Shown here piece by piece: positions 3,350 to 58,400 of a DNA stretch of 64,000 bases (positions are counted from its first letter, which is position 1; each line of letters starts with the position of its first letter). Under the pieces are notes generated by a model. It was given only the letters and a program-made list of their open reading frames with translations, did not search any database and was not told where the DNA came from. The position numbers were made by a program, and so were the translations under genes. This DNA is from an uncultured archaeon (GTDB lineage: Archaea; Aenigmatarchaeota; Aenigmatarchaeia; GW2011-AR5), in assembly GCA_964373255.1 (NCBI GenBank), contig CAYJTG010000001.1, positions 82,768-146,767 on the forward strand. The letters are read 5' to 3'.

Positions 3350-3492
3350 TGTGAAAATTCCTTTCTTAAAATTTCTTTTGTGACAATTGTAACTAGTGGC
3401 ATGAAGCGCCGCTAAGCAAAACAAGCCAAATTTTTTATGAATTTTATTTGAAAAGACGCAGGTCAAAGAAAGATAACCTGCGCCTTTTCTGA

Positions 3493-18402: not shown

Positions 18403-18807
18403 TGAAGTGTCCTTTCACGGTGATTTTCAATTTATTTTTCAAAATTGTTTTCTTACTTGATTTTCTTTCCAAAGATTACTATGTTTCTTGATCAAACTTT
18501 TGGATAATAATTGATTCAATGTAATTTCTTTTAATCGACTTTTTCTTTTGGAAAGAAAAAGTCGCAAGACAACGCAAGACATTGAAAAGTCTGGTGTTGT
18601 ACAAAATTTTATGTAGCGAAGCGTAAAGAAATAGAAAAGGCAAGACATGCAGAAACCAGCTTTACAGGCTGATTTGATTAAGTTTTTTTCGTCTTGCTTT
18701 CTTCCCGTTAGAGAGCTTTCGACCCTACCGATCTAAGTAAGAAAAGACTGATTGCTCAATTTTTCTTATATTTGTGATCGGATTTGAATTTTGTGATTTT
18801 TCTTTGT

Positions 18808-20811
18808 TTATAGGTAAATATTCTCGAATGCGCCTGTGCCCATGAACTCATCGGCAAGCTGCACAAATATCTTCATGCCGCCCTTCTTTTTTGCGTACCG
18901 GCACGCCTGCTGCAGCAGTACGTTTTTCAAGGCTTCGTTTGCGCAAATATAATAGCCGTTGTTGTGGAGTGCCCTGTAAATTGGGTCGCGATCGTAATTC
19001 GTTATAAATGAAAGCTTTAACTCCTTATCGCCCTTTTTAAGCATTACTAATCCGCCTGAATCAGCCGCCTGCCCAACCTCGTAGCCGGATGACTCGAACT
19101 TCCATATTATGTGCTTTTTGTCCATTTTTTCCTGCCTTGGGGCGGTTTTTTCTATTTTATTGAATACACCCTCGCCGATGTCTGTCAAAAAGTAATAAAC
19201 GGCCTTGGTTTTCTTCACCTTCACGCCTTTCTGATCCACCAAACCAAGCTTTAGCAAAAGCTTCATGTTGTCGTTGAACGTCGAGCCGGACATCTTCAGT
19301 GCCTTATAGAGCTGCGACGTATAGAGGCCTTTGCCAGTGCCTATGGCTGTGATTATCTTCATCTCGCTTTCATTCAAGCCGTTGACATCAAAATCCACGT
19401 CAACATTCGCCCTGCCGATAGTTTTTATCTTGTCCCGCATCAGCTCGACGACGTCTTTATCGGTTATCTTCCCTTTCTCTATTTCCAGCTTTTCGAACTC
19501 AGCAAGGAACGGCTTTGAAAATTCTGAATTTCTTGCCAGCATAAATCCGTGCCCCACGGGCAGCCTTCGCAAATAAGAGCCTTCCTCATTATAGTCAAGC
19601 CCGAGCATGTTCGCAGCGTCCATTATGTCTGACGACTGCTTTGTGTCTAGTCCTAAATTCATGTATATGTGCGTTGACGTATTGCCCATAGCCGGATAGC
19701 TCACCAATGAAGGATGCTGGTCGATATAAATTATGCCCAGCCCCAATTCACGAACCTCACGGAACAATAAATCAATGACCGTCTCTGACCCGAGCTTCTT
19801 CGATTTTTCCCTGTTCAGAACGTGATGCGCCTCCTCAAGGATTATGGCGCCTGCTAATTTTTCCCTGCTCTTGCCTGCGAGCATCCAGTCGCGTATCCAC
19901 TGCAGCACAATCTCGATGAAAAACGTCTTGTCGTTTGTCGACAACGCGTCCAGTTCGAATATTGTGATCTTGCCCGGTGAAAATAATTGCGACAGATCAG
20001 AGAAGTCCGTATCAAAAACATCGTTCATTTCACGGAAGCAGAGCGATTCCAACGGACGCATTGCTGTTGCGACCCAGTTTCTTTCCCTTGACGATCCATG
20101 GCTATGGGAAAGGATTTCAACTGCGTCTTTCAGGTCAGCCAGCCTTGGGTTCTGCTTATTTTCGTACAAATCATTCATTGCCATCATAATTATGTGCTGC
20201 CCGCCCCCAAGCAGCCAGTAGGCGTGGTCGAATATGGATGCGAACTCCTTTATCCACTGCGACGCCGTTATGTCCTTGGGCGGCTTCAACGGGTTGAACC
20301 TGAACGGCGAGACATCACGACCGATCGTGTAAACCTCTATCCTGTCCCTTAATTCTGTTTGAAGTAGGTCACGGTAATTTCTTTTCGAGAAGTCAAATAT
20401 AATTACAGGTATATTCATCTCCGCCAAACTCTTCGCAAGCATAAAGGAGACGTTTGTCTTGCCGTACCCGGAAGACCCGAATATTCCTATGTGCGTAAGC
20501 AATGATTCTGCCTTTATTAAAAGTGGAAACAGTCTTTTTCTGCCGTAGTTGACGTGACCCAGCTTTATTTCCCCGCTGATCACTTCTCTTTCAGGCGGCT
20601 CGATGAGAACCGTGTCCCTCAATTCCTTGTCCGAGTTGACAGCCGCTTTCAGTATGTCGACCATCTCAATTATTCTTTTCCTCGTCTCCTCATCCGCCAA
20701 TAGATAAGTCTTTAACAACCGCTCGGCGTTCTGCCTGCCCATGACAGGCGTCATCTTCTTGATCTCGTCGCTTATCAGCTTTTCCTGGTAGTACATATTA
20801 ATCACGACCAA
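18808..20811 (-). CDS. HerA/FtsK-superfamily (DUF87-type) P-loop ATPase with C-terminal winged-helix and extra domain
   Basis: Walker A GSSGYGKT, Walker B IILEEAHH, 667 aa. C-terminal wHTH-like GKGLYTSQLYKALKMSG. Confidence 0.65.
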   Translation of the reverse strand: MVVINMYYQEKLISDEIKKMTPVMGRQNAERLLKTYLLADEETRKRIIEMVDILKAAVNSDKELRDTVLIEPPEREVISGEIKLGHVNYGRKRLFPLLIKAESLLTHIGIFGSSGYGKTNVSFMLAKSLAEMNIPVIIFDFSKRNYRDLLQTELRDRIEVYTIGRDVSPFRFNPLKPPKDITASQWIKEFASIFDHAYWLLGGGQHIIMMAMNDLYENKQNPRLADLKDAVEILSHSHGSSRERNWVATAMRPLESLCFREMNDVFDTDFSDLSQLFSPGKITIFELDALSTNDKTFFIEIVLQWIRDWMLAGKSREKLAGAIILEEAHHVLNREKSKKLGSETVIDLLFREVRELGLGIIYIDQHPSLVSYPAMGNTSTHIYMNLGLDTKQSSDIMDAANMLGLDYNEEGSYLRRLPVGHGFMLARNSEFSKPFLAEFEKLEIEKGKITDKDVVELMRDKIKTIGRANVDVDFDVNGLNESEMKIITAIGTGKGLYTSQLYKALKMSGSTFNDNMKLLLKLGLVDQKGVKVKKTKAVYYFLTDIGEGVFNKIEKTAPRQEKMDKKHIIWKFESSGYEVGQAADSGGLVMLKKGDKELKLSFITNYDRDPIYRALHNNGYYICANEALKNVLLQQACRYAKKKGGMKIFVQLADEFMGTGAFENIYL

Positions 20812-21169: not shown

Positions 21170-21698
21170 TCAGATTCTCGAATATCGAAGCAATCTTTCT
21201 TTCGGTCTCGTGCTGCTCTGTGAGCTGCTTCAGCTCCGTAGTGAGCTCCATGACGTCCTTCCAGAACTGGACATCCTCGTGCCGCTTCTCCTTCCGGAGC
21301 ACGGATACGTCCAGCTTCAGGTTCCTTCTTTCATTAGGGTCAGAAATAACAAGGCTCATGCTGTTCTTGTCGTCGATGTCCTTCTCTATCTCTTTTTCAA
21401 TGCTTCCGTGGAGCTGTGTCCTTACGTCTATGTTTTTTCTTATCTCGTCTATTCGCTGCTCCAGAAATTTTACTCGGTCAAAGATATTCCCGATGACATC
21501 AGAGCTGACAATCTTCAGCGGCTCTATCACATCATCCGTCATGCGCGGCATCGCCTGGTGCTCGACTACCGTAACTGTCTTCGGTCTTTTTGGCTCGTAT
21601 ATATCTTCGTCTGTCTTCTTTGCCTTCGCTGTCTTCTCTATGTCTTCTATTGTTTTGTACAGTCTTTCGTCTTTCTTGTACTTGTCAATTTCGTACAT
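21156..21698 (-). CDS. Coiled-coil protein, first gene of the HerA-like ATPase operon
   Basis: ORF, Glu/Lys-rich heptad-like sequence; overlaps the next gene by 14 nt. Confidence 0.4.
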   Translation of the reverse strand: MYEIDKYKKDERLYKTIEDIEKTAKAKKTDEDIYEPKRPKTVTVVEHQAMPRMTDDVIEPLKIVSSDVIGNIFDRVKFLEQRIDEIRKNIDVRTQLHGSIEKEIEKDIDDKNSMSLVISDPNERRNLKLDVSVLRKEKRHEDVQFWKDVMELTTELKQLTEQHETERKIASIFENLNEGE

Positions 21699-21779
21699 TT
21701 TACCACCTATAGATAGTTAACTTATATACGTTCCGCCGGAACGTATTTAAAGCTTTCGCCACTGCTTGGTGATATAAAC

Positions 21780-21960
21780 ATAATCCACCATCTAAAGATG
21801 GTGGTATTTCTTTGAAATACCACAAGATAATACATGGTGAAGCTACGCTTCACCTGTACAGGAGAATCTTCGATTCTCCATGTATTTGTGGATTATGTTA
21901 TACAGGTGAATACCATAATACCGCTGTTTCAAAACAGTGGTATTCACCATGTATAAAAAC
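21780..21960. repeat. Repeat family B copy 1 (~180 bp, internally palindromic: ccaccatctaaagatggtgg, ggagaatcttcgattctcc, catggtgaa...ttcaccatg)
   Basis: About 90% identical to the inverted copy at 38445..38620. A partial copy lies at 43905..43965. Confidence 0.7.
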
Positions 21961-21984
21961 TATTGCGTAAAAAAACTGCACGAT

Positions 21985-22135
21985 TGAAACAAACTGACGC
22001 ACGAAGTGCGTCTATCTGTATTGACAATGCCTCTAGCTGACAGTTGCAGAAAACGAAGTTTTCTGAACTCTTGGAAAGCTTCGCTTTCCACAGATATACG
22101 TCAACAGACGTATATGTCTACGTCGACCATGCTGT
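21985..22135. repeat. Repeat family C copy 1 (gaaacaaactgacgcacNNagtgcgtctatctg hairpin module + caatgcctctagctgac + acgtatatgtctacgtcgac module)
   Basis: Related copies at 23338..23483, 41755..41880 (inverted) and 47250..47355. Confidence 0.6.
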
Positions 22136-22209
22136 GAAGATCAGAGGTCTTCAAGCTCTCGACGAGCTACGCTCAGTCGCAGATGAACCCGTGGGTTCAA
22201 ATCTTAAAA

Positions 22210-22412
22210 GTGCTCCCGACGGGATTTGAACCCGTGTCCGCGACGGACTCCAACCATCTTCCAGTTTTCTTGATCAACCTTCTTTCCAAAAGAAGGTTGT
22301 GAGAGGCCGCTATCCTATCGGTTTTTCTTGATTGACCGGGATTTCCAACCTTTTCCTGGTTCTTTTGATTAATCTTTTCTTCCAAGAAAAGATTACTAGA
22401 CTACGGGAGCTT
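22210..22412 (-). tRNA. tRNA-like gene, apparently intron-rich or degenerate (canonical T-arm GGTTCAAATCC and 7-bp acceptor complementarity GCTCCCG...CGGGAGC-A ~200 nt apart)
   Basis: The 3' end reads ACGGGTTCAAATCCCGTCGGGAGCA. The 5' part reads GCTCCCGTAGTCTAGT, the same TA-GxxT-AGT architecture as the tRNA at 24148..24314. The body contains extended hairpins (aaccttctttNNNNaaagaaggtt). I could not fold a clean cloverleaf, so the isotype is undetermined. Confidence 0.3.
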
Positions 22413-22423
22413 CAATCTTACAC

Positions 22424-22514
22424 AGTATCTCCGAAAGTTGGATTACTGCCTGTTGGCAGTAATCCTCTACCGAGGTATACGCCAAGAGGCGTATACCTCA
22501 CTTTCGGAGATACT
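22424..22514. repeat. Repeat family A copy 1: ~90-bp element with 15-bp terminal inverted repeat (agtatctccgaaagt ... actttcggagatact) enclosing two perfect hairpins
   Basis: Copies at 39322..39413 and 48608..48698 (inverted), >90% identical. Confidence 0.7.
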
Positions 22515-22571
22515 ATTACAGAATTAAGCAGGAACGATTAAATAAATGAATTTTGTCGGCATTTATGAAAC

Positions 22572-24147: not shown

Positions 24148-24314
24148 CGGGCCTGGAGGGATTCGAACCCCCGACTTCCACGTCCGAAGCGTGGCGCTAT
24201 GGACCCTTTTGGTCTATCCTGGTTTCTCTACCATCCCTAATATTTTATGAAGTTTCTTGGGGTTCACCAAGACCTTCTTTTCAAAGAAGGGATTGGTAAC
24301 TAAGCTACAGGCCC
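24148..24314 (-). tRNA. tRNA-Arg (anticodon TCG) with a ~95-nt non-canonical intron in the D-loop/D-arm
   Basis: Acceptor GGGCCTG/CAGGCCC + discriminator G. Anticodon arm CCACG-CTTCGGA-CGTGG. Variable loop AAGTC. T-arm GGGGG-TTCGAAT-CCCTC. Exon 1 is GGGCCTGTAGCTTAGTT and exon 2 starts ...GGTCCATAGCG. No encoded CCA. Confidence 0.6.
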
Positions 24315-26306: not shown

Positions 26307-27710
26307 CTAATCACTCTTCTTCATGGAATTTTCAAAAGCCGATCCGATTTCTATCAGTTTCTTTTCGTTGAGATGGTCGGCAATCAGATGCAATCCGACG
26401 GGCAGATTTTTTGCAAATCCACAAGGCACGCTCATATGCGGCACGCCAGCAAGGTTAGGCGCCACGGTAAGCACGTCCATCTGGTACGCCTGCAGCGGCG
26501 ACAATTTTTTGATTTCTGAGAACTTCGGCGGCAGTATGGGCATGGTAGGCGCGGCTATGGCATCAAACCGCCTGAAGATTTTCTTGAAGTCGTTTATTAT
26601 GAGCGTGCGGACCTTCATGGCCTTTATATAAAATTTGTCTCTGTACCCGCTCATGCGGGCAAATGTTCCCAGCATAATTCTTCGCTTTGCTTCCTCGCCG
26701 AAGCCGTCTGTCCGTACTTTTGAAAAATATTCGTCGAAATTCCCGTGCAGTTCTTTGTGCAGGCCGTAGCGCAGCCCACAGAATTTTGCCAGGTTCGTAG
26801 ACGCCTCGGCCGTGGCGATAATGTAGTAAGCAGGCAGCGCGTATTTTGTCATCGGCAGTGAAACTTCTTTGCACTTCGCTCCCGATTCCTCCAGCTTCTC
26901 TATTGCTTTCCACACGCACTTTTCGACGCTTTTGTCTATATTCCTGAAATACTCCTTTGGCACGGCAATAGTTTTTCCCCGCACGTCATCTCTCACGTGA
27001 GCGGTGTAATCGTATTTTTTCGTGTTTATTGATGTGAAATCCCTGCTGTCGTGCCCGGAAATCACAGACAAAACCAGCGCGGTATCGAAAACATTTTTGC
27101 CTATAACTCCTATCTTGTCAAGGCTGTTCGCATAATCAATAAGGCCGTACCGCGACACAAGTCCGTAGGTCGGCGTCAGCCCTACAACGCCGCAGAACGA
27201 CGCGGGGCACGATATCGAGCCGCCTGTGCTTTCTGCCAGCGCAACGTGCGGAAAATTAGCAGCCGCCGTTAGTCCGGCTGCTCCGCCAGACGAGCCGCCG
27301 CACGTCCGCTGCGGGTCGTGCGGATTTTTCGGGATGCCGTAGGCCGAGTTCACAGAAAACGTTCCAAAGCCGAACTCGTCCTGGTTTGTCTTGCCGAGAA
27401 TGTTTCCGCCTGATTCCTTTATTTTTTTTACAGGCGTCGCGTCCATTGGCGGCATATAGTCCTCGAGGATTTTAGACCCCGCCCTGCTCGGCACGCCGGC
27501 AACGCATATGTTGTCCTTGACAGATACGGGCAGCCCAAAAAGGTTGTAAGAGAACGTTACATTTACAAAATTATCAAGATGCGCAAAAAAATTATACTTC
27601 TCGTTCAGCTTCTTTGACTCATCCAGAACGTGGTGCAGAAAATCAGCTCGGTCGAATCGCTTGTCTTCTGCCTGCTTCAGGTATTGTTCGACAGAAATAT
27701 TGTAGTTCAT
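26307..27710 (-). CDS. gatA: Asp-tRNA(Asn)/Glu-tRNA(Gln) amidotransferase subunit A (amidase signature family)
   Basis: GGSSGGAAGLTAAAN amidase signature, 467 aa. Confidence 0.85.
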   Translation of the reverse strand: MNYNISVEQYLKQAEDKRFDRADFLHHVLDESKKLNEKYNFFAHLDNFVNVTFSYNLFGLPVSVKDNICVAGVPSRAGSKILEDYMPPMDATPVKKIKESGGNILGKTNQDEFGFGTFSVNSAYGIPKNPHDPQRTCGGSSGGAAGLTAAANFPHVALAESTGGSISCPASFCGVVGLTPTYGLVSRYGLIDYANSLDKIGVIGKNVFDTALVLSVISGHDSRDFTSINTKKYDYTAHVRDDVRGKTIAVPKEYFRNIDKSVEKCVWKAIEKLEESGAKCKEVSLPMTKYALPAYYIIATAEASTNLAKFCGLRYGLHKELHGNFDEYFSKVRTDGFGEEAKRRIMLGTFARMSGYRDKFYIKAMKVRTLIINDFKKIFRRFDAIAAPTMPILPPKFSEIKKLSPLQAYQMDVLTVAPNLAGVPHMSVPCGFAKNLPVGLHLIADHLNEKKLIEIGSAFENSMKKSD

Positions 27711-27989
27711 GCTTCATAACTTGGCTCAAACGGATTTAATGTTAATGTGCTACAAGGAATGAACCGGTATACCAAATTCCTTGTGCACAGTACATGGTAA
27801 AGCAAAGCTTTACCTGTAATTTGAAAATCCTCCAGATTTTCAATTACAATTCGAATTCCTGGAATTCGAAATTGTACAAGCGAAACTTTGTTTCGCTATG
27901 TACTGTGATCCAAATCTATATAGCCCGATTCTTTATTTGGATCACATTAATTTCTGAAAAATCGTTCCTTAAAAAGAATATAGTAACGC

Positions 27990-28018: not shown

Positions 28019-28237
28019 ATGGTAACAACAATACAGATAAGCGAGAAGTTGAAAGAAAGGCTGGAAAAGAGGAAGCTTTACAAAAATGAGACTTACGAAG
28101 ATGTTCTTTTGGATTTGTTGGAAGACAGTATGGAATTATCCGATGAGACCAAGAAAAATATAGCACAAGCAGAAAAAGAGATCAAAGAAGGTAAAGGCAA
28201 AACTCTTGAACAGGTGAAGAAGGAGTTAGGTCTATGA
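28019..28237 (+). CDS. Type II antitoxin (RelB/ParD-like), 72 aa
   Basis: Small ORF overlapping the toxin gene by 4 nt (ATGA). Confidence 0.5.
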   Translation: MVTTIQISEKLKERLEKRKLYKNETYEDVLLDLLEDSMELSDETKKNIAQAEKEIKEGKGKTLEQVKKELGL

Positions 28238-28491
28238 CGTATGAAATAATAATCCTTCCTGTTGCCCAGCGCCAGTTAGAGAGGCTTGAAAAAAATGTTC
28301 AAGAAAGAATACTTAATTCTTTGGAAAGAATAAAAATTCGCCCGTATGATTTTGTTAGGAAACTCACAGGCTCGCCATTTTATAAATTACGTGTGGGTGA
28401 CTATAGGATTATTCTGAAAATTTTAAATGAGACCATGATAATTTATGTAGTGGAAGTTGGCAATAGAAAAAACATATACAAAAATATCTGA
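28234..28491 (+). CDS. relE: RelE/ParE-family type II toxin
   Basis: ...FYKLRVGDYRIILKILNETMIIYVVEVGNRKNIY matches the RelE consensus (YRLRVGDYRIIY...IGHRK.Y). Confidence 0.7.
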   Translation: MTYEIIILPVAQRQLERLEKNVQERILNSLERIKIRPYDFVRKLTGSPFYKLRVGDYRIILKILNETMIIYVVEVGNRKNIYKNI

Positions 28492-33664: not shown

Positions 33665-34235
33665 TAAATAACTATTTGTCTGGCCGGTATTTATAGTTCT
33701 ACATTAAGGGAAACCCAGGTTTCCCTTATAACACGCAAAGAACCAAAGGTTCTTTGGTGCACCAGAAAGCTTTGCTTTCTGTGTGTCTAGACTTAATCCT
33801 TTCCTAAGCTAGAACTTAATCCTTTCCTAAGCTAGAAATTGTAATAATTTTCTCAAAATAATTTTTCTTGATTGACCTTTTGATAATAAATTTATCCTGA
33901 TAATTTTTCTTGATTGACCTTCTTTTTTGAAAGAAATTTTTTTGATTAACCTTTTTTCCACTTTAGTTAATACAAAAAAGGTTAAAAGAAAGAGTCGGCA
34001 GCCGGCAAGCCACTCAGCATACCATTGAAGGCCTGCCTTATGATCTCACCGACTGCCTATCTTTGGGGTGTGGTCAGCATAAGACGAAAACCTAGGTTTT
34101 CATTCTTATCAACTTCCTTTCCTAGGTGACTTTCGCCATATTATTTTCTACTTATTTTCTTTAGGGTTCACCAATCCTTTTCTTTTCAAAAGAAAGGGAT
34201 TGGCAATGACGAAAACGCCCCAAATAATTTCGCCA

Positions 34236-37119: not shown

Positions 37120-38355
37120 TCATATCGCCACAGGGCTCGAGCCGGCGTGCCACGACTGTCGCGGGCGGACGCGGATCTTATAGATACGCTCCGAGTTGTC
37201 GTCCAGCACGATAGCCGCGCCCTTAACCTTTGGCAGCTCGTTGATGTATTTCCCTATGCCGAATATCAGGTACGTCTGCATGATTCCCTCCAGCGCCTCG
37301 ACGTCTGATTTTGCCGTCATGCTGTGCGATATCACGATGTCAGCCTGCGTGAGCGCATCAGGGCTGAGCTTGTTTGGCTGCTGGCTGATAAGGACAAGCG
37401 TTATCCCCGGCTGGCGGCCTTCTTTCACAACGGTGTTCAGGATATCTGTGGCAGCTGTTTTTCCAGTGTCCGGCAAAAAATTATGGGCCTCGTCGATAAA
37501 TATCCATGGAATGGGCGTCCTTTTTGCCGTTGACACCTCTATGATAGACTGCTCTTCCTTTCTGCGCGCCTTTGTCCTGTCTACAAAAATTTTCCTGCAC
37601 ACGATCCCGATAAGAAGCGCCCTCACTCCTTGTGGTGTCAAACTAACGTCGAGCACTGTGGACTTTCCTGGAACAAGTATGTCAGGTATCTTCTCATCGC
37701 CAAAGATGCCCCAGGATTCGGCTGCGTCAAACCTGTTTTGCAACGCGAGCTTCTCGTGCTCAAAGCCTTCCTCTTTTGAGATAGCAGAAATTATAGTATC
37801 GATGCCAAATTCCCTGTCGCCAAGTTTTTTGTACACCCTCTGGAGCAGTATGCCCAACGGGTCGTTCTGATTTATTGCAAAGACCGAGAGCCAGTCTTCC
37901 GCGGTCATCTGCGACGGCTTCACGGAGAAGACGCCGTCGTACTCAACGCCCGCCTCTGAGAACATTTCGGCCTGGCCCTCCGGAACGTAGACGTTCACGT
38001 CAAACCCCTTTGGCTTCATGCCCCACTCGTTGAGCAGCACAGCCTCGCGCTCGTTCGGCGTCTTCATGGTCCAGAATATTCCCTGCGTGTCGACGATGAG
38101 CGAGCACAGGTTGTTTCTTACGTTGGCCTGCATCATCTGCATCTCCTCGACCATGACGCCTGCATCAAACGACTTGCCGGTGCCTCTCTTGCCCGTGATT
38201 ACTATCAGGTGCGGCCGCAGGGCGTCGAGAAAAAGCGGTGTTGTGAGGTGCGTCTCATCGCCTGTCCCGACGATATGCTTCCCAAGAAAGAGCGTTCCAG
38301 TATCGCCGAACCTCTTTGCGTCTTCATCGTCACGGCCAACAACAATCTCTGTCAT
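37120..38355 (-). CDS. DUF87/HerA-like P-loop ATPase (second copy in window)
   Basis: Walker A GKRGTGKS, Walker B IFIDEAHNF. Start placed at MTEIVVGRDD; the track ORF extends to 38466 into repeat B. Confidence 0.6.
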   Translation of the reverse strand: MTEIVVGRDDEDAKRFGDTGTLFLGKHIVGTGDETHLTTPLFLDALRPHLIVITGKRGTGKSFDAGVMVEEMQMMQANVRNNLCSLIVDTQGIFWTMKTPNEREAVLLNEWGMKPKGFDVNVYVPEGQAEMFSEAGVEYDGVFSVKPSQMTAEDWLSVFAINQNDPLGILLQRVYKKLGDREFGIDTIISAISKEEGFEHEKLALQNRFDAAESWGIFGDEKIPDILVPGKSTVLDVSLTPQGVRALLIGIVCRKIFVDRTKARRKEEQSIIEVSTAKRTPIPWIFIDEAHNFLPDTGKTAATDILNTVVKEGRQPGITLVLISQQPNKLSPDALTQADIVISHSMTAKSDVEALEGIMQTYLIFGIGKYINELPKVKGAAIVLDDNSERIYKIRVRPRQSWHAGSSPVAI

Positions 38356-38444
38356 GAATATCACAAGTAAACTGAACAAAAATCTCCCTTTTCTTTGGGG
38401 CTTACAAAGACCTTTCTTTTGAAAAAGAAAGGGATTTGTATTGT

Positions 38445-38620
38445 ATTTATACATGGTGAATATCACTGTTTTGAAGCAGTGGTATTATAGTATTCACCTG
38501 TATAATACAATCCACGAATACATGGAGAATCGAAGATTCTCCTGTACAGGTGAAGCGTAGCTTCACCATGTATTATCTGTGGTATTTCAAAAAAATACCA
38601 CCATCTTTAGATTGTGGATT
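38445..38620. repeat. Repeat family B copy 2 (inverted relative to copy 1), immediately upstream of the DUF87 ATPase gene
   Basis: About 90% identity to 21780..21960 in reverse complement. Confidence 0.7.
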
Positions 38621-38927
38621 GTATTTATATGCTTATCTTATAAATAAAATAACAAAACAGATACTAACAAAATAATCTAGAAGGCTTGAACAATATGTTG
38701 TCAGAAGCGGGGAAAATAAAAGTAGAATATCATAATAAAATGTCTAAACATCACTTATCTAGATACGATAAAATTTACGATGAAAACAGCTGGAGACCAG
38801 TTTTTAATCCCGCTATTTATTTTCATACGATTGCTTGGATTTTGCATAATGGAGCAGCTGAATTATATAAACTTCTTCACGACAAAGATTATATGAGCAG
38901 ACAAGAGTTATACTGCTAATTTTCAAA

Positions 38928-39224
38928 GTGGTAACAATGAAGATAGCTGAAATAAAAGACGACTCGAGAAAAATAAACGTCGAGGCCAAGGTCGTCGAGA
39001 AAGAAGACACGAGAGACGTCACAACAAAGTTCGGCACAACCCTGAAGGTTGCGAACGCCGTCCTCGAGGACGATTCAGGCAGCATCCAGCTCACGCTCTG
39101 GGGCGACGACGCCGACAAGGTCAAGCAGGGCGACACCATAAAGATAGAGAACGGCTTTGTCAAGGAATGGAACAACTCGCTGCAGCTCTCTGTTGGAAAA
39201 TACGGTAAATTGACTGTGCTATAA
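38928..39224 (+). CDS. OB-fold nucleic-acid-binding protein (RPA/SSB-like single OB domain)
   Basis: KIAEIKDDSRKINVEAKVV...FGTTLKVANAVLEDDSGSIQLTLWGD...GDTIKIENGFVKEWNNSLQLSVGKYGKLTV matches the archaeal RPA-like OB pattern. Confidence 0.55.
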   Translation: MVTMKIAEIKDDSRKINVEAKVVEKEDTRDVTTKFGTTLKVANAVLEDDSGSIQLTLWGDDADKVKQGDTIKIENGFVKEWNNSLQLSVGKYGKLTVL

Positions 39225-39321
39225 TTTTTCAAGTCTTCGGAAGGCTTTTTCTGATGAAAAAAGATTAGTCAAGAAAAATTACCGCTTCTTTGAATTCTTC
39301 TGAAAACCGCTGACTCTGTCC

Positions 39322-39413
39322 AGTATCTCCGAAAGTTGGATTACTGCCTCTTTGCAGTAATCCTCTACCGAGGTATACGCCAAGAGACGTATACCTCACT
39401 TTCGGAGATACTA
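39322..39413. repeat. Repeat family A copy 2, abutting the stop of the M50 protease gene
   Basis: Same terminal inverted repeat and both internal hairpins as copy 1. Confidence 0.7.
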
Positions 39414-40027: not shown

Positions 40028-40547
40028 AATACCCTCACTTCGTGAGTCTATACCATATTATTATTTTTTTTCCTCAATTAATTTCTTTTGATTAATCTTT
40101 TCTTTTTCCGCTACAATTTTTCTTACTCAATTTTCTTTAGAAAAGAAAATTGAGTGGAGGCGCGTCCTCGGTGGAAGCCGCCTGCAAAAATGGTTTGTCC
40201 GGCACCATTGCTCCGCCCAGTTTTCCCATGAGCATTGCAAATATAACTTATGTCTGCTACGTTCCCGTTCTCATTCCCCAGCCTTTTCAATTCTTTGCAA
40301 AAAGTCTTTCGCTTTTTGCAGATTTCCCAAGGCTTTTCTTTTGCGAAAGAAAAGGCTTACAGGTTCGCTATACTTGTAATCCCACAGGTCTGGACTTCTA
40401 CGCTCTGATGCTGGGCCATGATTGCAATCAGAATCGCCCTCGAACTTCGGTCCCGCCTATAGCGGATTGACGGCAACAGGTGTCCGCTACCCACCCGACC
40501 TAGCCTCCAAGATTAATTATAGGGAAATGCTTAAGAAGAAAGTGAAA

Positions 40548-41714: not shown

Positions 41715-41754
41715 ACGCATGATTAGCACCTGCACGATTGAATTCCATATTCGT

Positions 41755-41880
41755 ATGATGATGGTCGACGTAGACATATACGTCTGTTGACGTATATGTC
41801 AGCTAGAGGCATTGTCAATACAGATAGACGCACTTCGTGCGTCAGTTTGTTACAATGCCTCTCACGTCGACCATCATACT
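41755..41880. repeat. Repeat family C copy 3 (inverted), between two pilin genes
   Basis: tgtcagctagaggcattgtcaatacagatagacgcacttcgtgcgtcagtttgtt plus the cgtcgacgtagacatatacgtc module. Confidence 0.6.
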
Positions 41881-42054
41881 TTAATGGAATTCAATCCACC
41901 TGCACTGTTTATAGATATACATTGTTTATAGATATAGTTAGCCATATAGATAAAATTAGCGCATGACAAAATTGCCGTAAACATTGCATATTTCTTATCA
42001 GTCACTATCAAGAAATCGAAAGTGCGCATGCTATTTTATCCGCTATTTTCGCAT

Positions 42055-43861: not shown

Positions 43862-43968
43862 TTATTATGAAGCAAGTAAATGATCTGGATATTATAACTT
43901 GCTTCATATACATGGAGAATCGAAGATTCTCCTGTACAGGTGAAGCGTAGCTTCATCATGTATAGCAA
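43862..43968. repeat. Repeat family B partial copy 3, directly upstream of the pilin gene 43340..43807
   Basis: catatacatggagaatcgaagattctcctgtacaggtgaagcgtagcttcatcatgtat matches the central part of copies 1 and 2. Confidence 0.6.
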
Positions 43969-44122
43969 ACAAGAAATATAATATCTGATTCTTTTCTTGT
44001 TTAGCTATAATAGCGATAAAATTTTGTTTTGTCAATTGCCCGCCACCAAAGCGGCGGGCGTGAGTAGGACAAAGCAAGCCTGCTATTTAGATTTTAATTT
44101 TATGGAACTCATGTTTGTAAAT

Positions 44123-46767: not shown

Positions 46768-47399
46768 ACACTTTTCATCTCGACAGCGTCTGAAGTTGTG
46801 TTGCGCAGGAATGATATCCTCGTCAGTCCGCCTGATGTATGTCCGGAGTACGTCGCGTTGAGCCCTACGACGCACGTGGCGTTGAAATAAAGCCCCGACG
46901 TCTCTAACCTTATGGACGCGTTCTGGAACTTTGCGGTATATTCTGCATCAGCCAGCTTGTCGGGCAGGTTGACATCGAGCGAGCTTCTGGAAGCCGCGGG
47001 CGACCTGTACGAAGACGCGTAGAAAATTTTCTCAACGCCCCCACGCAGTGTAAGGCAAAGCTGGTCGATCTCGCTCTCCGCCGCGAACAGCTGAAAATCT
47101 TCGTGCAGCGATACGAACGTATTCACGATGACGAGTATGAAGAATATTACAAAGCCAAGCAGAAGCGTATGAGTCAGGAGCGTTGCCTGGCCTTTTCTAC
47201 AGAGCTTTGATTCTGTTTTTTTGCCTCTGTTGAAATTCTCAACAAAAGCGTCGACGTGAGAGGCATTGAAACAAACTGACGCACGGAGTGCGTCTATCTG
47301 TTCAGACAATGCCTCTAGCTGACCCATACGTCGATAGACGTATGGGTCTACGTCGACACTTTTGACATAGGTTTTTAACAGAGCTGGTTTTTTCATCAT
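46764..47399 (-). CDS. Pilin-like protein whose N-terminal ~45 codons are encoded by a family-C repeat copy; true start uncertain
   Basis: ATGA coupling to the upstream gene. Class-III-like RKG|QATLLTHTLLLGFVIFFILV segment after the repeat-derived region. Confidence 0.4.
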   Translation of the reverse strand: MMKKPALLKTYVKSVDVDPYVYRRMGQLEALSEQIDALRASVCFNASHVDAFVENFNRGKKTESKLCRKGQATLLTHTLLLGFVIFFILVIVNTFVSLHEDFQLFAAESEIDQLCLTLRGGVEKIFYASSYRSPAASRSSLDVNLPDKLADAEYTAKFQNASIRLETSGLYFNATCVVGLNATYSGHTSGGLTRISFLRNTTSDAVEMKSV

Positions 47400-47983: not shown

Positions 47984-48172
47984 GAGTCATTTATTCATTC
48001 GGAATAATAAATGGTTTTGCTTGTGCATTGAAAGATTGAATTCCATTAAAGTATGATCGTCAGCGTGAGCACCATCGCCTTCCTGGCAATGGTGCTAGCT
48101 GCGGTATACATCAAAAGACGTATATCGCTACGCTGACGATCATCATACGAATATGGAATTCAATCCAAAAAA

Positions 48173-48544: not shown

Positions 48545-48607
48545 TCTATAAATTAGAGTAATAAACTTAATAAATACTACGATACAGAGAAATTCAAAAA
48601 TTAGAAT

Positions 48608-48698
48608 AGTATCTCAGAAAGTGAGGTATACGCCTCTTGGCGTATACCTCGGTAGAGGATTACTGCCAACAGGCAGTAATCCAACTTTCGGAGATACT
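48608..48698. repeat. Repeat family A copy 3 (inverted; one mismatch in the terminal inverted repeat)
   Basis: agtatctcagaaagtgaggtatacgcctcttggcgtatacctcggtagaggattactgccaacaggcagtaatccaactttcggagatact. Confidence 0.7.
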
Positions 48699-48777
48699 GT
48701 AGAAAGAATCAAAATTATTTCTACATCTCGACATACCTGCAAAAAGTGTTAAGAGAAAAAGTGCGCTTTCCTTTGCT

Positions 48778-52442: not shown

Positions 52443-55400
52443 TCACTTCCCGCCCAGCACCGCGACATTAATACCAAGCTTCTTCTCAATCGCCGCCAGC
52501 CTTGACTTCAGATCACTCATCTCTGACCTGAGCTCTGTGTTCTCCGCTTTGAGCTGCTCAACCTGTTGCTGCTGCTGTTGAATCGCGTTGACTAAGACTG
52601 GTGCGAAAAGATCATATTCTAGGCCCCAGAGTGTTCTATTCTCATCAGCCGGTTTATCAACAAGTTCTGGCATAATGGGATAGACATCTTGAGCCACTAA
52701 ACCAATGATTTCCTTGCCGGAGTTTTCCACCACAAGCGTATTGTTATCAAAATGGGAGTTTTGATAGAAATAGCGTTTTGGAGTGAGTTTCAATACTTCA
52801 GCGAGACCATAATTGAGCGGTTGTTGATTGCTCTTTACCCGACTATCGGAAGTACTCCACCATTGCCAAGCCCATCCTTGACCGCTTGCATCAGCTGTAG
52901 TTGGAAGCTCTAAACGATGCGTTGGGCTGGTCATCCCGATGCCGACGTAGCCGCTTGGTGTAATTTCCATCACATTAATGCCATCGGCGTCATTCCTAAT
53001 ATTGAAGTTGCCCACTCGGCCTGATACTCCGCTTCCTAGTGTCCGTACTCTCCATTGCTTACCACCTGAGCCTGTATTTGCAAATTCTATGCCTGTTTCA
53101 ATAGTATTTGCATCAGCAAGTTCAAGGAGCATATCTGGCGCCAGAACCCCGATGCCGACTTTGCCGGTTGTTCCAGTAATTACAATGCCTGCAACCCCTG
53201 CACCTCCCGAATTTGTGCTAAGAAGTATTTTGCCTCCATTTGTTCTGTAAACAATATCTCCGAGAACAGAACCTGTAGCATAAGCATCATTAAAGGTAGG
53301 AAGCGCGATATAACCCCGAACTGTCCCTGATGTTTTCAATACTATTGCTGGATATTGTGTTCCATCAAGAGTAATCCCATCACCTCCTGTGGTGGTGTAA
53401 ACACTGAGTTTAGTGCCTGGGTTTGTAATCCCGATGCCGACGTTGCCTTGGTTAAAATACACGCTTCCGCTGTTCGGGATGGCCCAGCTGTTGCCAGATA
53501 AGTCGGCACCGCGGAAGTAAACAGGCCTTCCTGCGGTACCATCAGTAATGTAGTGCGTTGGAGAGTACAGATAAGTCGTACTGATACTATTCCTAACGTA
53601 GAACCCCCACCCAGCTACCGAACCATCAACCACCAGGCCAGTTACACCATCAACTACCGTACTGCCTCCAATATAGTTGTCGAACCTGGAGGTGCCAACC
53701 ACATGTAACTTCGCCCCAGGCCCCGTCGTCCCGATGCCGACGTTGCCGTTTATGTTGGAAAGAATCGATGTTCTCGAATAAGTAGTTCCAGTATCTGGAA
53801 TGGCAGCGTACTGGGTGAGATCCCCGGTGTTTAATGATACAGACCCATAGTATTGAGCTGTCCATGGAACTCCGCCCAGCCAGCTAGCGCTTGCCTGTGC
53901 CCAAATAGACAGATAATTCGGGCCGAGACCGGTTCCGCTGCGGCGGACTACTTTTACATCTGCGATGGTATACTCGCTGCCCCCAGTTACTTCATGCTCA
54001 ATGTTATAAGTACTTTCTATGTCAGATCCGCCATTCCTGAACTGCACCGAGATCGTCTCTACCGAGTCGCCATGGTTTGGGTTTGTCGGAAATACGCTCC
54101 ATACAACGCCTGCCGCACTGTAAGCCCCATTAACAGTCAGCTCTCCAATCTTGATCCACTTGCCACTGCTGTCGCCGTTCGTATGGAGCCATGTCCAGTG
54201 CCCGCTTTGCATGAGAGTGCCGCTGCTTCCTGCCAGCCGGAATGAGCCTGCAACATCCAATTTACTCCCCGGATTCGTCGTCCCGATGCCGACGTTGCCG
54301 CTGGTTACCATCAACCCTTTCCCATTGACAATCTCAACGTAACTCTTGTCATAACCTGTCCCAACTCCTGTGCCCGCGCCTAGCTGAATTCCTGTATCAA
54401 AGTTTATCCTCAATTGCTGATAGGTATTTGCTGTCCACGCGCCGGACATCCGGTAAATTCCGTAGGCTGCGCTAGGCGTCACCCCTGAGACGTGCCAATA
54501 AATACCATAGGTCCCATCCGTGGCTACCGACCCTCCGCTAGGCTGTAACACAATGCTGTTAAGGTTTGTCCCGATATTCCCACTGACCTCAAGCTTATAG
54601 TTTGGTCCCGTCGTCCCGATGCCGACGTTGCCGCCGTTAAGAATTGTCATTTTTGTAGTCGGACTACTAGCAGCACCAGCAGTTGTTCCAGTTCCTGTGT
54701 CAAAATTGAAAGCTCCATCTACCATTCCAAGAATAACTGATTTATAGACACTATATTTATTTACCCATCCAGCGGCGGTGTATTGAGTATTTCCAGTTAT
54801 ATAACTATCGTAAGCATTTCTAAACAAAACTCCAAAAGCTCCAGCATGCATTTCACTATATGCTGCATTTGTAGCAGAAAAGCTCCCCGCACCAAGTTGA
54901 AGAAGTCCAGCAGGTGCCGTCGTCCCGATGCCGACGTTGCCGGTATTCATAATTCTCATTCTTTCTGTAATTTCATTTCCGCCAGATGCTTTTGTCCCGA
55001 AAAGTAAATCAACACCATAGTTACCAACCTGCTTGCCAACGATAGCTCCGCCAGCATAATTTTCCAGAGCATTGTGAAAGATTAATCCTTTTTTACCAAC
55101 CAAATCACCTATCGCATCATTTAGAGTTCCTAAAGCAGTTACTCTGCCAATATCCAGAGTGAACACAGGACTCGTCGTCCCGATGCCGACGTTGCCGTCA
55201 TTTTGAATCCTCATCCGTTCTCCGGCATTGAAAGTTGTACCAGTGAGGAATCGAATGGATGCTGCTTGCAAATTCTGGATGTTGAATTGATTATTGTCCC
55301 GCTCAGAGAAAACTACCCCCATCTGGTTTCCGCTATTAATCCAACGTATCCCCGAGGTTACTCCTACTCCATTAGCCGCAGATGGGTTGTCCACAACAAT

Positions 55401-58400
55401 CTGTTCAGACCGTCCAGCAACTGAGTTTTCAACCTCGAGTCTATCTACTGGACTCGTCGTCCCGATGCCGACGTTGCCGCTACTTAACACAACAACAGCT
55501 GGTGTCGAAAAGGTTGAACCCCCATTTGCCGTTGATGGAGTTATTTCAAATCCATTGTTGACATTAAATTGTCCACCTATAAGCCAGTTTCTTGTCGCAC
55601 CGTCTGTTTGAACAAATGTAAGTCTTGTATTGCCATCGGTTGTAGCTAATGTCAGTTTCGTAAGCGGACTCGTCGTCCCGATGCCGACGTTGCCTGTTGT
55701 TCTATCTAAATACATTTTCCCATCATCAAAATTAATATTATCATTATCACCTAATCTTAGAATAGAACCGCCACCCGAAGCATAAAGATAAGTATCATTA
55801 TCAATAACGATATTACCTCCCACAACGCTTAACTTTGCCGCCGGACTCGTCGTCCCGATGCCGACGTTGCCGTTGCCTAAAACTGTGAAACTCGTGTCAG
55901 CCGGCGCACCTGCATTGGCAAGAGATAAATAAAATCTTCCAGTCTGAACATTATTACCATTCTGAAGAATACCAAATTCTCCAAGCAAATTTTTCGTTGC
56001 TCCGCCGTCCGTGTAAGAACGGATTGAATATCCTGCGCCATTAGCAGAATTTGCGTGATAAGTTGATATATAACCATCTTGAACTTGTAATTTTGTATTT
56101 GGACTCGTCGTCCCGATGCCGACGTTGCCGTCGCCATTGATTCGAAACGCTGTATTCGGCATTCCAACACCGTAACGCACATTCAATAAAGCAAACCCAT
56201 TTCCAGATGATTCGCTTCCAATATCAACGACAGTGCCGGTGTATGATGCGCTTGAAGCGTACAGCCGTGCAGCCCCTTGACTCGTATCCGAAGTAAAGAC
56301 TTCGAATTTTCTAGCAGGCCCCGTCGTCCCGATGCCGACGTTGCCGCTTGTATCTATTCTCATTCTCTCAGTATTACCGCCAGTACCAAATCGGATAACT
56401 CCACCGGTACCAGCACTTGCTAATAAATTTAATCCGCCAGATGTAGTAGAGTCAGCTTCTAAAGTTACACTATCTTGAACATACAAACCAGATGTCGTAT
56501 AGGCACTTCCAAATGTATATAAATATGCATTAGCGGCATCTGACGCTATTTGTATAGATGCGAACGAATTATTCGTTGTTTTAGATAAATGCAATAATGA
56601 TGCAGGCCCCGTCGTCCCGATGCCGACGTTGCCTGAAGATGTGGCAAGAAGCGTCTGCCCAGAGACGTTGAGAAGGCTTGTCGCGATTGAAGAAGGCGAG
56701 AAGATGCCTGCAAGCAATGTGCCTGTTATGTTAGCGTCGCCCACGACAACCAGCTTCTGATTAGGCGCCGTCGTCCCGATGCCGACGTTGCCTTCACCTA
56801 ATGGGTCGCCAGCTGGGGTGATAGTAAGATAATCACTAGCACCAGCAGTCTGACCCCCTCCTACTTTAAATCGATAACCATCTGAATAGTCTAATCCCAT
56901 ATGCCAACCGACGACATCATTAGAATTCAATGCTACGGTGGCATCACCAGCCATCTTTCTTAATGTCAATATTTCTCCCGGCGCCGTCGTCCCGATGCCG
57001 ACGTTGCCTGAAGAGTCTATCCGCATCCGCTCAGTCAATACCGAAGGTGTAGCAGTGTTAGCAGTAAAAAAGGTCATTAATCCGGGGACACTGTTATCAG
57101 CGATTGTTCCTTCTGTTCTGAATGCTATCCTCGCAGCCAATTTATACCCCGATGTAGCACCTGAATATCCGTATCCATTTATTATTAAAGGATAATCTCC
57201 AGTGGTGATAACCAACGGAACTGCGTTTGTTCCTCTTGATTTGTACGAATCAATCGCCAAACCTTGAACATTATTATCAGCGGCAAACGCCGTAACCATA
57301 GACAGCGTGCTCGGGTCATCCGATGAAAGTGTAAGGCTTCGACCATGTGCAGTGCTTGATAATGTGCCAGTCTGTATATCAAGTTTTGATGTCGGTGTCG
57401 CCGTCCCGATGCCGACTCTTCCTGTATTATTATCGACAAACAAAACGTTGTTGCTCACAGTGAGGTTTCTTGTAACAACCAAGTTCTCAGGAAACGTATA
57501 AGCCGTTGTTCCGCCAAATGTACCGACAGTTATGTTAGCGGCAGGAAGTGATGTAGTCGCTGGCGGTATCGTCGGTGTGTTTGTCAGGTTGGAATAGTCT
57601 AATTTTATCTTGTTATTCAGTGTTGTTCCGTAATCGCCAGTTATGTTTTGTATCGGCAGGCTTGTAGTAGCAGGCGGTATCCCTGTTGTATTGGCATAAG
57701 CGATTGTAAGCTTATTGTTCCATGTCGATAAATCGCCTGTGATGTTTGCAGCAGGGAGCGACAGTCCGTTCAATGCTATCGTGACGGTGTTTCCTGACTT
57801 TGATGTCAGTATCGCGCCCAGCCCTGATATTGTTGTAAGCACCGAAGAGCCGCCAATCAAGACGTCTGTGCCAAAGTACCCGCGCCTCCATGTCCTCGAC
57901 GTGAAGCCTATGTCAAAGGTGTTGTCGAATACAGAAGGCGGCAGTATCGAGCCGTTGACAGAAAGATTATTGACATTCGTGTTCGTGAGGTTGCCCAGCA
58001 GGAATAGGTTCCTGTTTATAATAACGTCATTGTCAAACGTCCACACACCTGTCACTGTTTCTGTTACACCTTTTCTCGGCACGACAGACGTGTCTATTGC
58101 AACATCGTCTGCGTTTATGGTTATCCCTGTGCCCGCACCAACAGTTAATGTGCCCGAGCCGCCCAATGCGATAGACCCGCCACCGCTCAATCCAGAGCCT
58201 GCCGTGACCGTGAGCGATGAATTGACAAGGTCCTGATTAGCTACGCTGCTGTCTGTTAAATTAGCTCCAGACAGTCCGCTCACGCCGCCATACCCAGCGT
58301 CAGCTACGCAAATTGATGAAGAAGTGCCGTCTATTAATGTTACATTCCTTAAAAATTGTCCTACTGCGCATTGTTGTGAGAATCCGCCTGTCACGTTCGC

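Follow-up and report, generated by a model that had tools for sequence, protein, structure and literature searches.

A Lineage-Specific Family of Nested, TA-Flanked Hairpin Elements in Aenigmatarchaeota, Probably a Non-Coding Mini-Transposon

The stretch of 64,000 nucleotides (nt) analyzed here, referred to as the window, comes from an uncultured archaeon of the Aenigmatarchaeota (contig CAYJTG010000001.1) and carries three copies of a repeat made up of hairpins, which we term family B. Each copy lies shortly upstream of a minus-strand gene, these being the first gene of a coiled-coil/HerA-like operon, the gene for a DUF87 ATPase, and a pilin gene. The placement raises the question of whether the repeat is a regulatory module shared by these genes or a mobile element found beside them. 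The original prediction offered both, either a shared cis-regulatory module or a promoter-carrying MITE (a miniature transposable element with inverted repeats), and proposed that the two ATPases are co-regulated with the pilin, possibly as parts of a DNA-transfer system. The analysis described below indicates that family B is probably a lineage-specific, nested, TA-inserting non-coding mini-transposon that resembles MITEs or the REP sequences of bacteria (repetitive extragenic palindromes). We rate the existence of a lineage-wide family of such very small nested hairpin elements as new, and the MITE- or REP-like kind to which they belong as known.

Anatomy and distribution of family B

The core of family B is a double hairpin of 52 nt, TA/CAWGG-hairpin-CCTG-TA-CAGG-hairpin-CCWTG/TA, in which the slashes mark module borders. 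The canonical element, of about 148 nt, consists of TATAG and a hairpin X, the core, an inverted hairpin X', and CTATA. Fifty distinct canonical copies were collected, with a modal length of 148 nt, and 37 of them were included in alignment A2. Read in order, the canonical element has (T)TATAG, X, TACAWGG with a hairpin h2 (typically GGAGAAYC...GRTTCTCC), TGTACA, a hairpin h3 of the GGTGAAGC type with CCWTGTA, X', and CTATA(A). Hairpin X takes the form TA/TAG-arm-conserved loop-arm-CTA/TA. Since X' is an X-type hairpin in inverted orientation, with the loop AAGAATCYGGAYATGAT appearing as ATATCCAGATT, the element as a whole is pseudo-palindromic. Every module is bracketed by TA, giving TA/TAG-X-CTA/TA/CAWGG-h2-CCTG/TA/CAGG-h3-CCWTG/TA/TAG-X'-CTA/TA. 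Terminal inverted repeats are present in the core, whose ends are CAWGGNGAANC... and its complement, and in the 148-nt unit, which has TATAG and CTATA at its ends together with the inverted X modules. The elements range from 52 to 220 nt and are without coding capacity. They have the generic features of MITEs, being small, non-coding, dispersed in multiple copies, bounded by terminal inverted repeats, and present or absent between relatives. A single hairpin of 26 nt was also considered as the mobile unit and was rejected, as 142 doublets were found versus 45 mostly degenerate singles.

The generalized core pattern, TACAWGG-N14-20-CCTGTACAGG-N13-22-CCWTGTA, was found in 104 stretches of genome contigs from about 23 metagenome-assembled genomes (MAGs), including GW2011_AR5. 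All of the records behind these stretches are either Candidatus Aenigmatarchaeota or unlabeled "archaeon" MAGs, and one MAG, DATDXH, has at least 15 matches to the pattern. The specific pattern, comprising one hairpin and the central junction, matched 41 metagenome stretches, and model R1 gave 289 strand matches at about 150 places in 744 kb of loci. The exact 37-nt core had no match in species-representative genome contigs, and the two patterns had none in viral contigs. The family is restricted to the Aenigmatarchaeota lineage, and the window is accordingly placed in a genome of these DPANN archaea. Family B was not found described in our literature searches, nor is it described in a census of prokaryotic MITEs in which the highest archaeal densities were those of DPANN genomes (PMC11602168).

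Within the window, the generalized pattern had four matches, which are the cores of the copies here called A and B, each read on both strands, compared to 0.00 expected from shuffles of the window. Copy A occupies 21771-21963 on the minus strand (about 193 nt; repeat search, BLAST, and model R1 at 75 bits), with its core and the two flanking TA at 21831-21884 on the same strand (pattern match with 0.00 expected by chance; nhmmer E = 2.9e-18). Copy B is the same composite in opposite orientation, at 38440-38631 on the plus strand (BLAST, folding, and model R1 at 81 bits), with its core and flanking TA at 38519-38572, also plus (pattern match and nhmmer). The repeat search paired 21825-21963 with 38440-38578 (94% complementary over 139 nt) and 21772-21824 with 38578-38630 (92% complementary over 53 nt), while BLAST returned a single inverted match with 92.7% identity over 192 nt. 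The long inverted copies originally placed at 21780-21960 and 38445-38620 are confirmed by this match, and the hairpins quoted for them are present in the sequence. The core of copy A reads TACATGG-GGAGAATC hairpin-CCTGTACAGG-GGTGAAGC hairpin-CCATGTA. In both copies, the core lies among other hairpins, namely a large TACATGGTGAATA...TATTCACCTGTA unit with an inner hairpin (in copy A, the large TACATGG...CCTGTA hairpin), the pair GGTATTTC and GAAATACC, and the pair CCACCATCT and AGATGGTGG.

Copy C, at 43866-44009 on the plus strand, is the best match of model R1 in the window (147 bits, E = 9e-29) and spans the full model from 1 to 164. With hairpin X at 43866-43911, the core at 43909-43962, and the inverted hairpin X' at 43961-44009, all on the plus strand and both X modules found by nhmmer, it is a complete canonical member of 144 nt that can be aligned over its whole length with 36 copies of other genomes. 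Its core is one base off the exact generalized pattern and was picked up by the repeat search, the profile, and the covariance model (CM). Copy C had been described as partial, which holds relative to copies A and B, whose center matches 43905-43963 (59 nt, 97%). Relative to the family, however, copy C is the common form, and copies A and B are atypical composites. The composite of copies A and B, of about 190 nt, was found only in this genome among the collections searched, and a copy B query matched the fetched loci (here numbered with the prefix L) by BLAST only at query positions 75-141, barring a few short weak matches elsewhere. A direct repeat of 10-12 nt flanking copy B, ATTGTATTTATA, was considered as a target duplication and dropped; both long copies have it, and in relatives the AT-rich spacers could not be aligned with confidence.

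Two variants bring the content of the window to three cores and two variants in 64 kb. A degenerate, expanded mosaic member (27747-27945, strand not assigned; sequence, nhmmer, and model R1 at 67 and 59 bits) lies in the gap upstream of GatA (26307-27710, minus strand). It has, in order, an X-like hairpin, a first and a second TACA...TGTA unit, and an X'-like hairpin, with two additional hairpins inserted at the central TA between the units. The other variant (33692-33826, plus strand; model R1 at 36.6 bits, E = 1.7e-5, and sequence) has the same architecture and lies upstream of an uncharacterized gene. At its junctions, CACG/CACAC...GGTGCACC...GTGTG replace TACAW...CCTGTACAGG...WTGTA, and this junction variant is also present in L109 and L143.

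Filled and empty TA sites and the pairing of stems

The core is present or absent as a block of 54 nt at a single TA. Matches to model R1 fall into three length classes of about 111, 164, and 217 nt, of which the short class is X-X' without the core, the middle class has one core, and the long class has a second core-type double hairpin in the loop of X or X'. In alignment A4, which sets copies of one subfamily side by side, some of them from a single MAG, those that have the core exceed those that lack it by exactly 54 nt, the core and one TA (L067 without versus L076 and L052 with; L064 and L123 without versus L102 and L073 with). The empty form reads ...CACA-TA-TAGC... and the filled form ...CACA-TA-(core)-TA-TAGC..., and the empty copies carry no footprint; the forms compared are paralogous copies rather than alleles of one site. 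The second core of L107 lies at GTAA-TA-(...)-TA-TCC inside the X' loop.

The 118 non-redundant cores have at least 45 different 4-nt flank contexts with TA alone in common, and these contexts include the loops of unrelated hairpins in contigs Ga0315289_10000005 and _10000006. Near-identical 148-nt units with unrelated flanks were found within one MAG, in L073, L102, and L005/L104 (a single place), with a metagenome copy in L016. The flank logo of the 148-nt unit is symmetric, T/TATAG...CTATA/A, with a preference of 70% and 76% for the adjacent base and nothing conserved beyond. One orthologous gene pair is separated in several ways, having no spacer in L023, 191 nt without the element in L042, X-core-X' in L052, and X-X' elsewhere in the spacer in L005. 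Presence and absence between related genomes was observed for this spacer and for copies A and B, as described below. Pairing of flanks among the fetched loci in search of empty sites returned only duplicates of the same contigs. The contigs of MAGs often end at these repeats. Judging by the many matches found at the ends of contigs, the elements probably interrupt the assembly of MAGs.

The hairpins of family B are stable on either strand. Copy B folded at -74.8 kcal/mol on the plus strand, compared to -39.9 ± 4.0 for shuffles (z = -8.8), and at -70.6 kcal/mol on the minus strand (z = -9.1). In alignment A2, obtained with MAFFT, 84.7% of cells were paired, compared to 76.2% in shuffles and at most 46% with slid partners, and 25 of the 46 pairs change on both sides. 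In alignment A3, which is fitted to the model and therefore leans toward structure, and which includes both strands of many copies, the corresponding values were 90.5%, 69.9%, and at most 43%, with changes on both sides in 40 of the 46 pairs. In the closing stem, the two W positions change together (A:U 20, U:A 13, other 4 in alignment A2). The core helices are 99% Watson-Crick paired, with about 1% G·U and up to four pair types per column. Because conserved bulges defeat gapless stem counts, the X hairpins were assessed by folding, duplex energies, and CM alignment. The X arms are 56% identical between copies, and the duplex of an arm with its own partner was estimated at -13.8 kcal/mol, versus a mean of -4.7 with the arms of other copies. 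X' carries a conserved bulge, and the X loops and the junction nucleotides are conserved as well.

Covariation across copies had been suggested as a means of distinguishing RNA structure from a protein-binding site. The covariation proved strong, and the pattern points to DNA palindromes rather than RNA, because G·U pairs amount to about 1%, the two strands are alike, there is no orientation bias, no Rfam family matches, and the elements nest in loops. Model R1 scored both strands of most copies. The Rfam search, conducted at gathering and at permissive E-values, revealed no matching family, the best score on the element being STnc100 at 24.6 bits compared to a gathering threshold of 47.

Gene neighborhood and competing explanations

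The closeness of the three copies to gene starts was upheld, with 74 nt between the end of copy A and the start codon at 21698, 85 nt between copy B and 38355, and 59 nt between copy C and 43807. Open reading frames (ORFs) of at least 90 amino acids (aa) in the window are mostly on the minus strand (50 of 58), and for this reason intergenic elements sit upstream of minus-strand genes. A search beyond the window for copies relative to gene starts gave the 104 stretches described above, but no bias by gene arrangement or orientation. Cores were found in 47 tandem, 18 divergent, and 14 convergent spacers, compared to a background of 672, 231, and 231, and the orientable cores in tandem spacers had the same orientation as the flanking genes in 14 cases and the opposite orientation in 14. 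Neither promoters nor terminators are favored. By a simple ORF picker, coding sequence makes up about 84% of the sampled DNA, and the spacers that bear elements have a median length of 262 nt versus 65 nt for all spacers. As a separate observation, a canonical element lies 0-15 nt from the apparent 3' end of a tRNA in L107 (about 3380-3410) and L145 (about 2380-2400), reading ...GGTTCAAATCCGGGCGAGCCCA/TTTATAG....

Examination of orthologous sites revealed that the elements are not a constant part of these neighborhoods. Copy B occupies the spacer that separates two divergent genes, that of the DUF87 ATPase (37120-38355, minus strand) and an OB-fold Ssb-like gene (38928-39224, plus strand). This spacer is 572 nt with copy B in the window, versus 65, 179, and 130 nt in L148, L149, and L150, where it has no family module. 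In L152, whose HerA-like protein is 72% identical, copy A is absent at the orthologous site. The gene order of L152 is that of the window (GatB, HhH-GPD, ZIP, spacer, 183-aa gene, 119-aa gene, HerA), except that HhH-GPD and ZIP are separated by two additional small genes, PIN and an ORF of 73 aa. The native promoter/leader block of the coiled-coil/HerA operon lies outside copy A, at 21699-21756 on the minus strand, with TTTAAATA and TATATAA boxes followed by GGTGGT before the ATG. This block is 79% identical over 66 nt to the front of the operon in L152, where AAGCTTTAAATAC...GTATATAA...GGTGGTAA is kept before the ATG of the HerA operon. The pilin gene has a TTATAT box about 27 nt before its ATG, outside copy C, and the TATA-like boxes closest to the starts are external to the element for copy A as they are for copy C. 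Between copy B and the DUF87 gene no TATA-like box was seen; the end of the element itself has a TATAAATA, at about 88 nt from the ATG. Copies A and B have opposite ends toward their downstream genes. A promoter module of a regulon would have a conserved position and orientation upstream of orthologous genes, with the functional TATA box or B recognition element inside it, and family B does not fit this description at the sites examined.

The neighboring genes encode GatA, GatB, an HhH-GPD glycosylase, a ZIP transporter, a class II aminoacyl-tRNA synthetase (D/K/N type), FtsZ, a rhomboid protein, and an M50 protease, in addition to the OB-fold Ssb-like protein and several archaeal type IV pilins. 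The DUF87 ATPase has 2130 homologues, the closest of which are 60-73% identical, and 1077 were counted for the winged-helix HerA-like ATPase (18808-20811). Both are ordinary conserved chromosomal genes in a housekeeping chromosome. No feature of a DNA-transfer island turned up in the gene analysis of the window, in which none was specifically looked for. About one-tenth of the closest DUF87 homologues are 557-575 aa in length, versus 410 aa, and have intein/Hint domains (PF14890 and PF01079); an intein therefore invades this ATPase in some Aenigmatarchaeota.

A promoter or cis-regulatory module shared by the HerA-like operon, the DUF87 ATPase, and the pilin, perhaps in a DNA-transfer system, would be in keeping with the positions of the three copies 59-85 nt upstream of start codons. 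It would also agree with the resemblance of the element ends TTATAG/CTATAA and TTTATA to archaeal TATA boxes, by which insertions could change expression, and with the absence of a separate TATA-like box before the DUF87 gene. We nonetheless consider it very improbable, as the orthologous sites examined for HerA and DUF87, two of the three genes, are without the element, copies A and B present opposite ends to their genes, and the boxes of copies A and C are external, the one block that precedes HerA being kept in L152 as well. Members of the family, such as those upstream of GatA and of the uncharacterized gene, adjoin unrelated genes without a 5'-end bias, most ORFs of the window share one strand in any case, and the neighborhood is that of a housekeeping chromosome. 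Co-regulation of the two ATPases with the pilin is thus unsupported, and no new regulatory connection of HerA-type ATPases with pili emerges from the locus. The MITE half of the original prediction stands, and what had been named as the mark of a plain MITE, random placement together with target-site duplications, largely agrees with what was found, the TA flanks being possible duplications. An individual insertion may still affect its neighbor incidentally, because the element ends resemble archaeal TATA boxes. Also improbable, though less so, is a structured RNA, either a family of small RNA genes or a signal in untranslated regions, in which selection for RNA folding would maintain the three-way junction and the hairpins beside it. 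The very stable folding (z about -9), the extensive covariation that includes the closing stem, and the conserved junction nucleotides and X loops would all suit an RNA, and bacterial REPs are often transcribed (PMC3733652). However, both strands fold equally well and are scored alike by model R1, orientation relative to flanking transcription is 14 against 14, and no Rfam family reaches its threshold. Furthermore, about 1% G·U would be unusual under RNA structural selection given such heavy covariation, and copies are gained and lost between close relatives and nested in each other's loops.

In the mini-transposon explanation that we favor, the 52-nt double hairpin with TA on both sides is the conserved unit, which would insert at TA dinucleotides as a non-autonomous transposon and leave a TA on each side. 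Its preferred targets would be TA sites within other small hairpin modules, the X modules, and successive insertions would produce chains and nests of TA-delimited hairpins. Some nests, for example the 148-nt X-core-X', may spread as units, and copies A and B may represent one such nest. The elements would fill whatever non-coding DNA the compact genome offers, with any effect on a neighboring gene being incidental. Movement would occur by transposition catalyzed in trans by an enzyme encoded by the host or by an insertion sequence (IS). The TA-only target would favor an enzyme of the IS630/Tc1-mariner type, whose signature is recognized here because TA is the sole common flank and a single TA is present in copies without the element; insertion at TA with no further target specificity was found, although an element ending in TA would look alike. 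Many Tc1/mariner ends begin with CAGG or CAWGG directly after TA, as do the ends of the core. The compensation within hairpins would instead favor an enzyme that recognizes folded single strands, for example a Y1 transposase of the IS200/IS605 type. The co-varying stems and the bulge of X' suggest such recognition, by an IS200/IS605 or a REP-associated (RAYT) Y1 enzyme, and arm-to-arm correction within palindromes could be an alternative source of the co-variation.

Several considerations weigh against the mini-transposon. The search pattern itself prescribed TA flanks and junction motifs for the cores, so that their invariance is partly a matter of ascertainment. The placement statistics use gene calls from a crude ORF picker. 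The filled and empty copies fit precise excision as well as insertion, and an element that ends in TA as well as duplication of a TA. No transposase was found in the 64-kb window. Among about 1 Mb of loci, amounting to only a few percent of each genome, the search for a long element with core-type ends gave only chance matches, and no systematic DDE scan was made. The co-variation of variable stem positions within each 26-nt end is not accounted for by a DDE transposase that recognizes sequence. Finally, an RNA role of the element is conceivable, though improbable.

The same mobility can be read as that of REP sequences, bacterial interspersed mosaic elements (BIMEs), or REP doublets (REPINs), in which a Y1 (HUH) transposase of the IS200/IS605/RAYT kind would act on folded single-stranded DNA, with TA as the cleavage or junction dinucleotide rather than a duplication from a staggered cut. 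We regard this as possible but unlikely. The stems vary yet stay complementary while the X' bulge and the loops are conserved, as structure recognition would have it, the core is a REPIN-like inverted doublet of two related hairpins, and the footprint-free empty copies are as expected of seamless HUH excision. IS200/IS605 TnpA genes are also present in these MAGs, at 76.8 bits in L125 (5360-5815), 85 bits in L140, and 42.6 bits in L149, compared to an NF033573 cutoff of 55 bits; a tblastn search with the Y1 transposase matched only L125 and L140 and nothing in the window. The TnpA gene of L125 is about 105 nt from a core, and the hairpins at its IS ends, CCACTGGTC...GACCAGTGGTATTTAT and CACCAGTC...GACTGGTGGA, resemble CCACTG...CAGTGGTATTAT and CCACCATCT...AGATGGTGGA within copies A and B. 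This proximity and likeness serve as a lead only, the resemblance being based on stems of 6-9 nt. Against the Y1 enzyme, the proteins score as IS200-type and not as RAYT (54.6 bits versus the 80-bit cutoff of NF047646), no Y1 gene has cores on both sides, and 2-3 Y1 genes in about 1 Mb are not an enrichment. The target is TA only, with no conserved tetra- or pentanucleotide on one side, and the GTAG/CGTC tag of bacterial REPs is absent (PMC3733652). IS200/IS605 elements are, moreover, asymmetric and strand-specific, whereas family B is symmetric. There is a slim chance that the hairpin chains are the substrate of an undescribed structure-recognizing transposition system of DPANN archaea, either a counterpart of REPIN-RAYT with an IS200/IS605-like Y1 enzyme or a recombinase that needs TA and a folded hairpin. 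If so, this would explain stems that drift freely yet remain perfectly Watson-Crick paired, and persistence across a phylum-level lineage with tiny genomes. The TnpA regions themselves (L125 5340-5990, L140 1560-2060, and L149 2300-3110) each have flanking hairpins, and that of L149 lies between the DUF87 and rhomboid genes in a region syntenic with the window.

Related systems and other features of the window

Family B was compared with known small repeats. Like the Correia elements of Neisseria (CREE/NEMIS) and Stowaway-like MITEs of the IS630/Tc1-mariner kind such as MITEEc1, it is small, non-coding, high in copy number, and intergenic, with inverted ends and a TA flank that is single where the element is absent, and it shares with them frequent nesting and a lineage-restricted distribution. 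Unlike these MITEs, it has a mobile core that measures no more than 52 nt and consists of two hairpins, and variable positions inside each end co-vary. It also differs in its host, a DPANN archaeon, in the lack of sequence similarity, and in that no IS630-type partner was identified. The classical archaeal MITEs (the Sulfolobus SM families and those of haloarchaea) are likewise non-autonomous and found in archaeal intergenic DNA, but they derive from known IS elements by internal deletion and have long inverted ends that are sequence-specific, whereas family B consists of chains of short compensating hairpins.

With the REP/BIME/REPIN sequences and RAYT of bacteria, family B has in common short palindromes that are imperfect and whose foot is conserved, as well as inverted doublets and intergenic hairpin mosaics (27747-27945 and copies A and B). 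Further likenesses are subfamilies with alternative complementary stem residues, long persistence in one lineage, and IS200/IS605-family Y1 genes in the host lineage. It departs from REPs in lacking their tag, its feet TACA and TGTA, and TATAG and CTATA, being paired or shared between modules, and in the rarity of G·T pairs, which are common in GTAG REPs (PMC3733652). That survey reported REPs only in bacterial phyla (PMC3733652). No preference for gene 3' ends was seen in family B, unlike REPs, and in the sampled loci there was no repeat-flanked RAYT gene, the Y1 genes of L125, L140, and L149 carrying end hairpins of their own. The IS200/IS605-derived palindrome-associated elements (PATE) have asymmetric ends and insert 3' of a specific tetra- or pentanucleotide without duplication, while the flanks of family B are symmetric and share TA alone. 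BOX of Streptococcus pneumoniae, RUP, and ERIC are modular as is family B, with end modules and variable internal modules, stable secondary structure, and dispersal in intergenic regions. Modular repeats of the BOX type have occasional incidental effects on neighboring genes. Family B is unrelated to them in sequence, and its modules are delimited by TA, with the internal module present or absent as a 54-nt block.

The elements account for several unusually long intergenic regions in a compact DPANN genome, and masking them is advisable before promoters, small RNAs, or regulons are inferred there. They can be used as markers for strain typing and for assigning contigs to Aenigmatarchaeota. They also offer a clean case of nesting at TA sites, with length classes 54 nt apart, and raise the question of what enzyme mobilizes elements of this sort in archaea whose genomes measure about 1 Mb.

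Other repeats are present in the window. A second family, at 22422-22517, 39314-39413, and 48605-48706 (about 96-100 nt, 93-99% identity), has the design of the core, with an outer stem (AGTATCTCCGAAAGT and ACTTTCGGAGATACT) closing two inner hairpins, and is unrelated in sequence; an additional element built in this way is present in L147. A third family, of hairpin mosaics such as ATATACGTCAACAGACGTATAT and GACGCACGAAGTGCGTC, is found at 21983-22042, 22094-22130, 41736-41896, 47250-47357, and 48034-48165, and is common to several spacers of the pilin region and the spacer of copy A. Direct repeats at 33786-33953 (also at 18505-18542 and 40062-40099), with CTAGAACTTAATCCTTTCCTAAG twice in tandem and three copies of TAATAATTTTCTCAAAATAATTTTTCTTGATTGACCTT, lie downstream of FtsZ (minus strand) in the spacer beside the stop codon at 34236 and could be protein-binding iterons.

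A tRNA-like gene, apparently with several introns that each have a hairpin, lies at about 22208-22430 on the minus strand and at about 2545-2820 in L152. Its 3' part reads ...GGACACGGGTTCAAATCCCGTCGGGAGCA, and the pieces GCTCCTGTAGTCTAG...GTCGGCCTCTCAA...GGGGTTCAAA...CCCCTCAGGAGCA are visible in L152, where the region is kept. At 22208-22321, Rfam gave only a match to the tmRNA/tRNA clan (20 bits, E = 7.7e-6), and ARAGORN found nothing. The sole gathering-level Rfam match in the window is a tRNA at 24148-24206 on the minus strand (59 nt, full model, 35.2 bits), which ARAGORN did not call and which may be an unusually short or atypical tRNA. In the AT-rich 28-30 kb region beside the mosaic at 27747-27945, genes for a DUF7557 protein (28019-28237) and a ParE-family toxin (28234-28491) follow one another on the plus strand (28019-28491) and likely form a toxin-antitoxin module. 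A single ORF of 3575 aa at 52443-63170 on the minus strand has many internal repeats, with the DNA motif GTCGTCCCGATGCCGACGTTGCC, encoding G-N-V-G-I-G-T-T, occurring at least 14 times, and probably encodes a giant repetitive surface protein.

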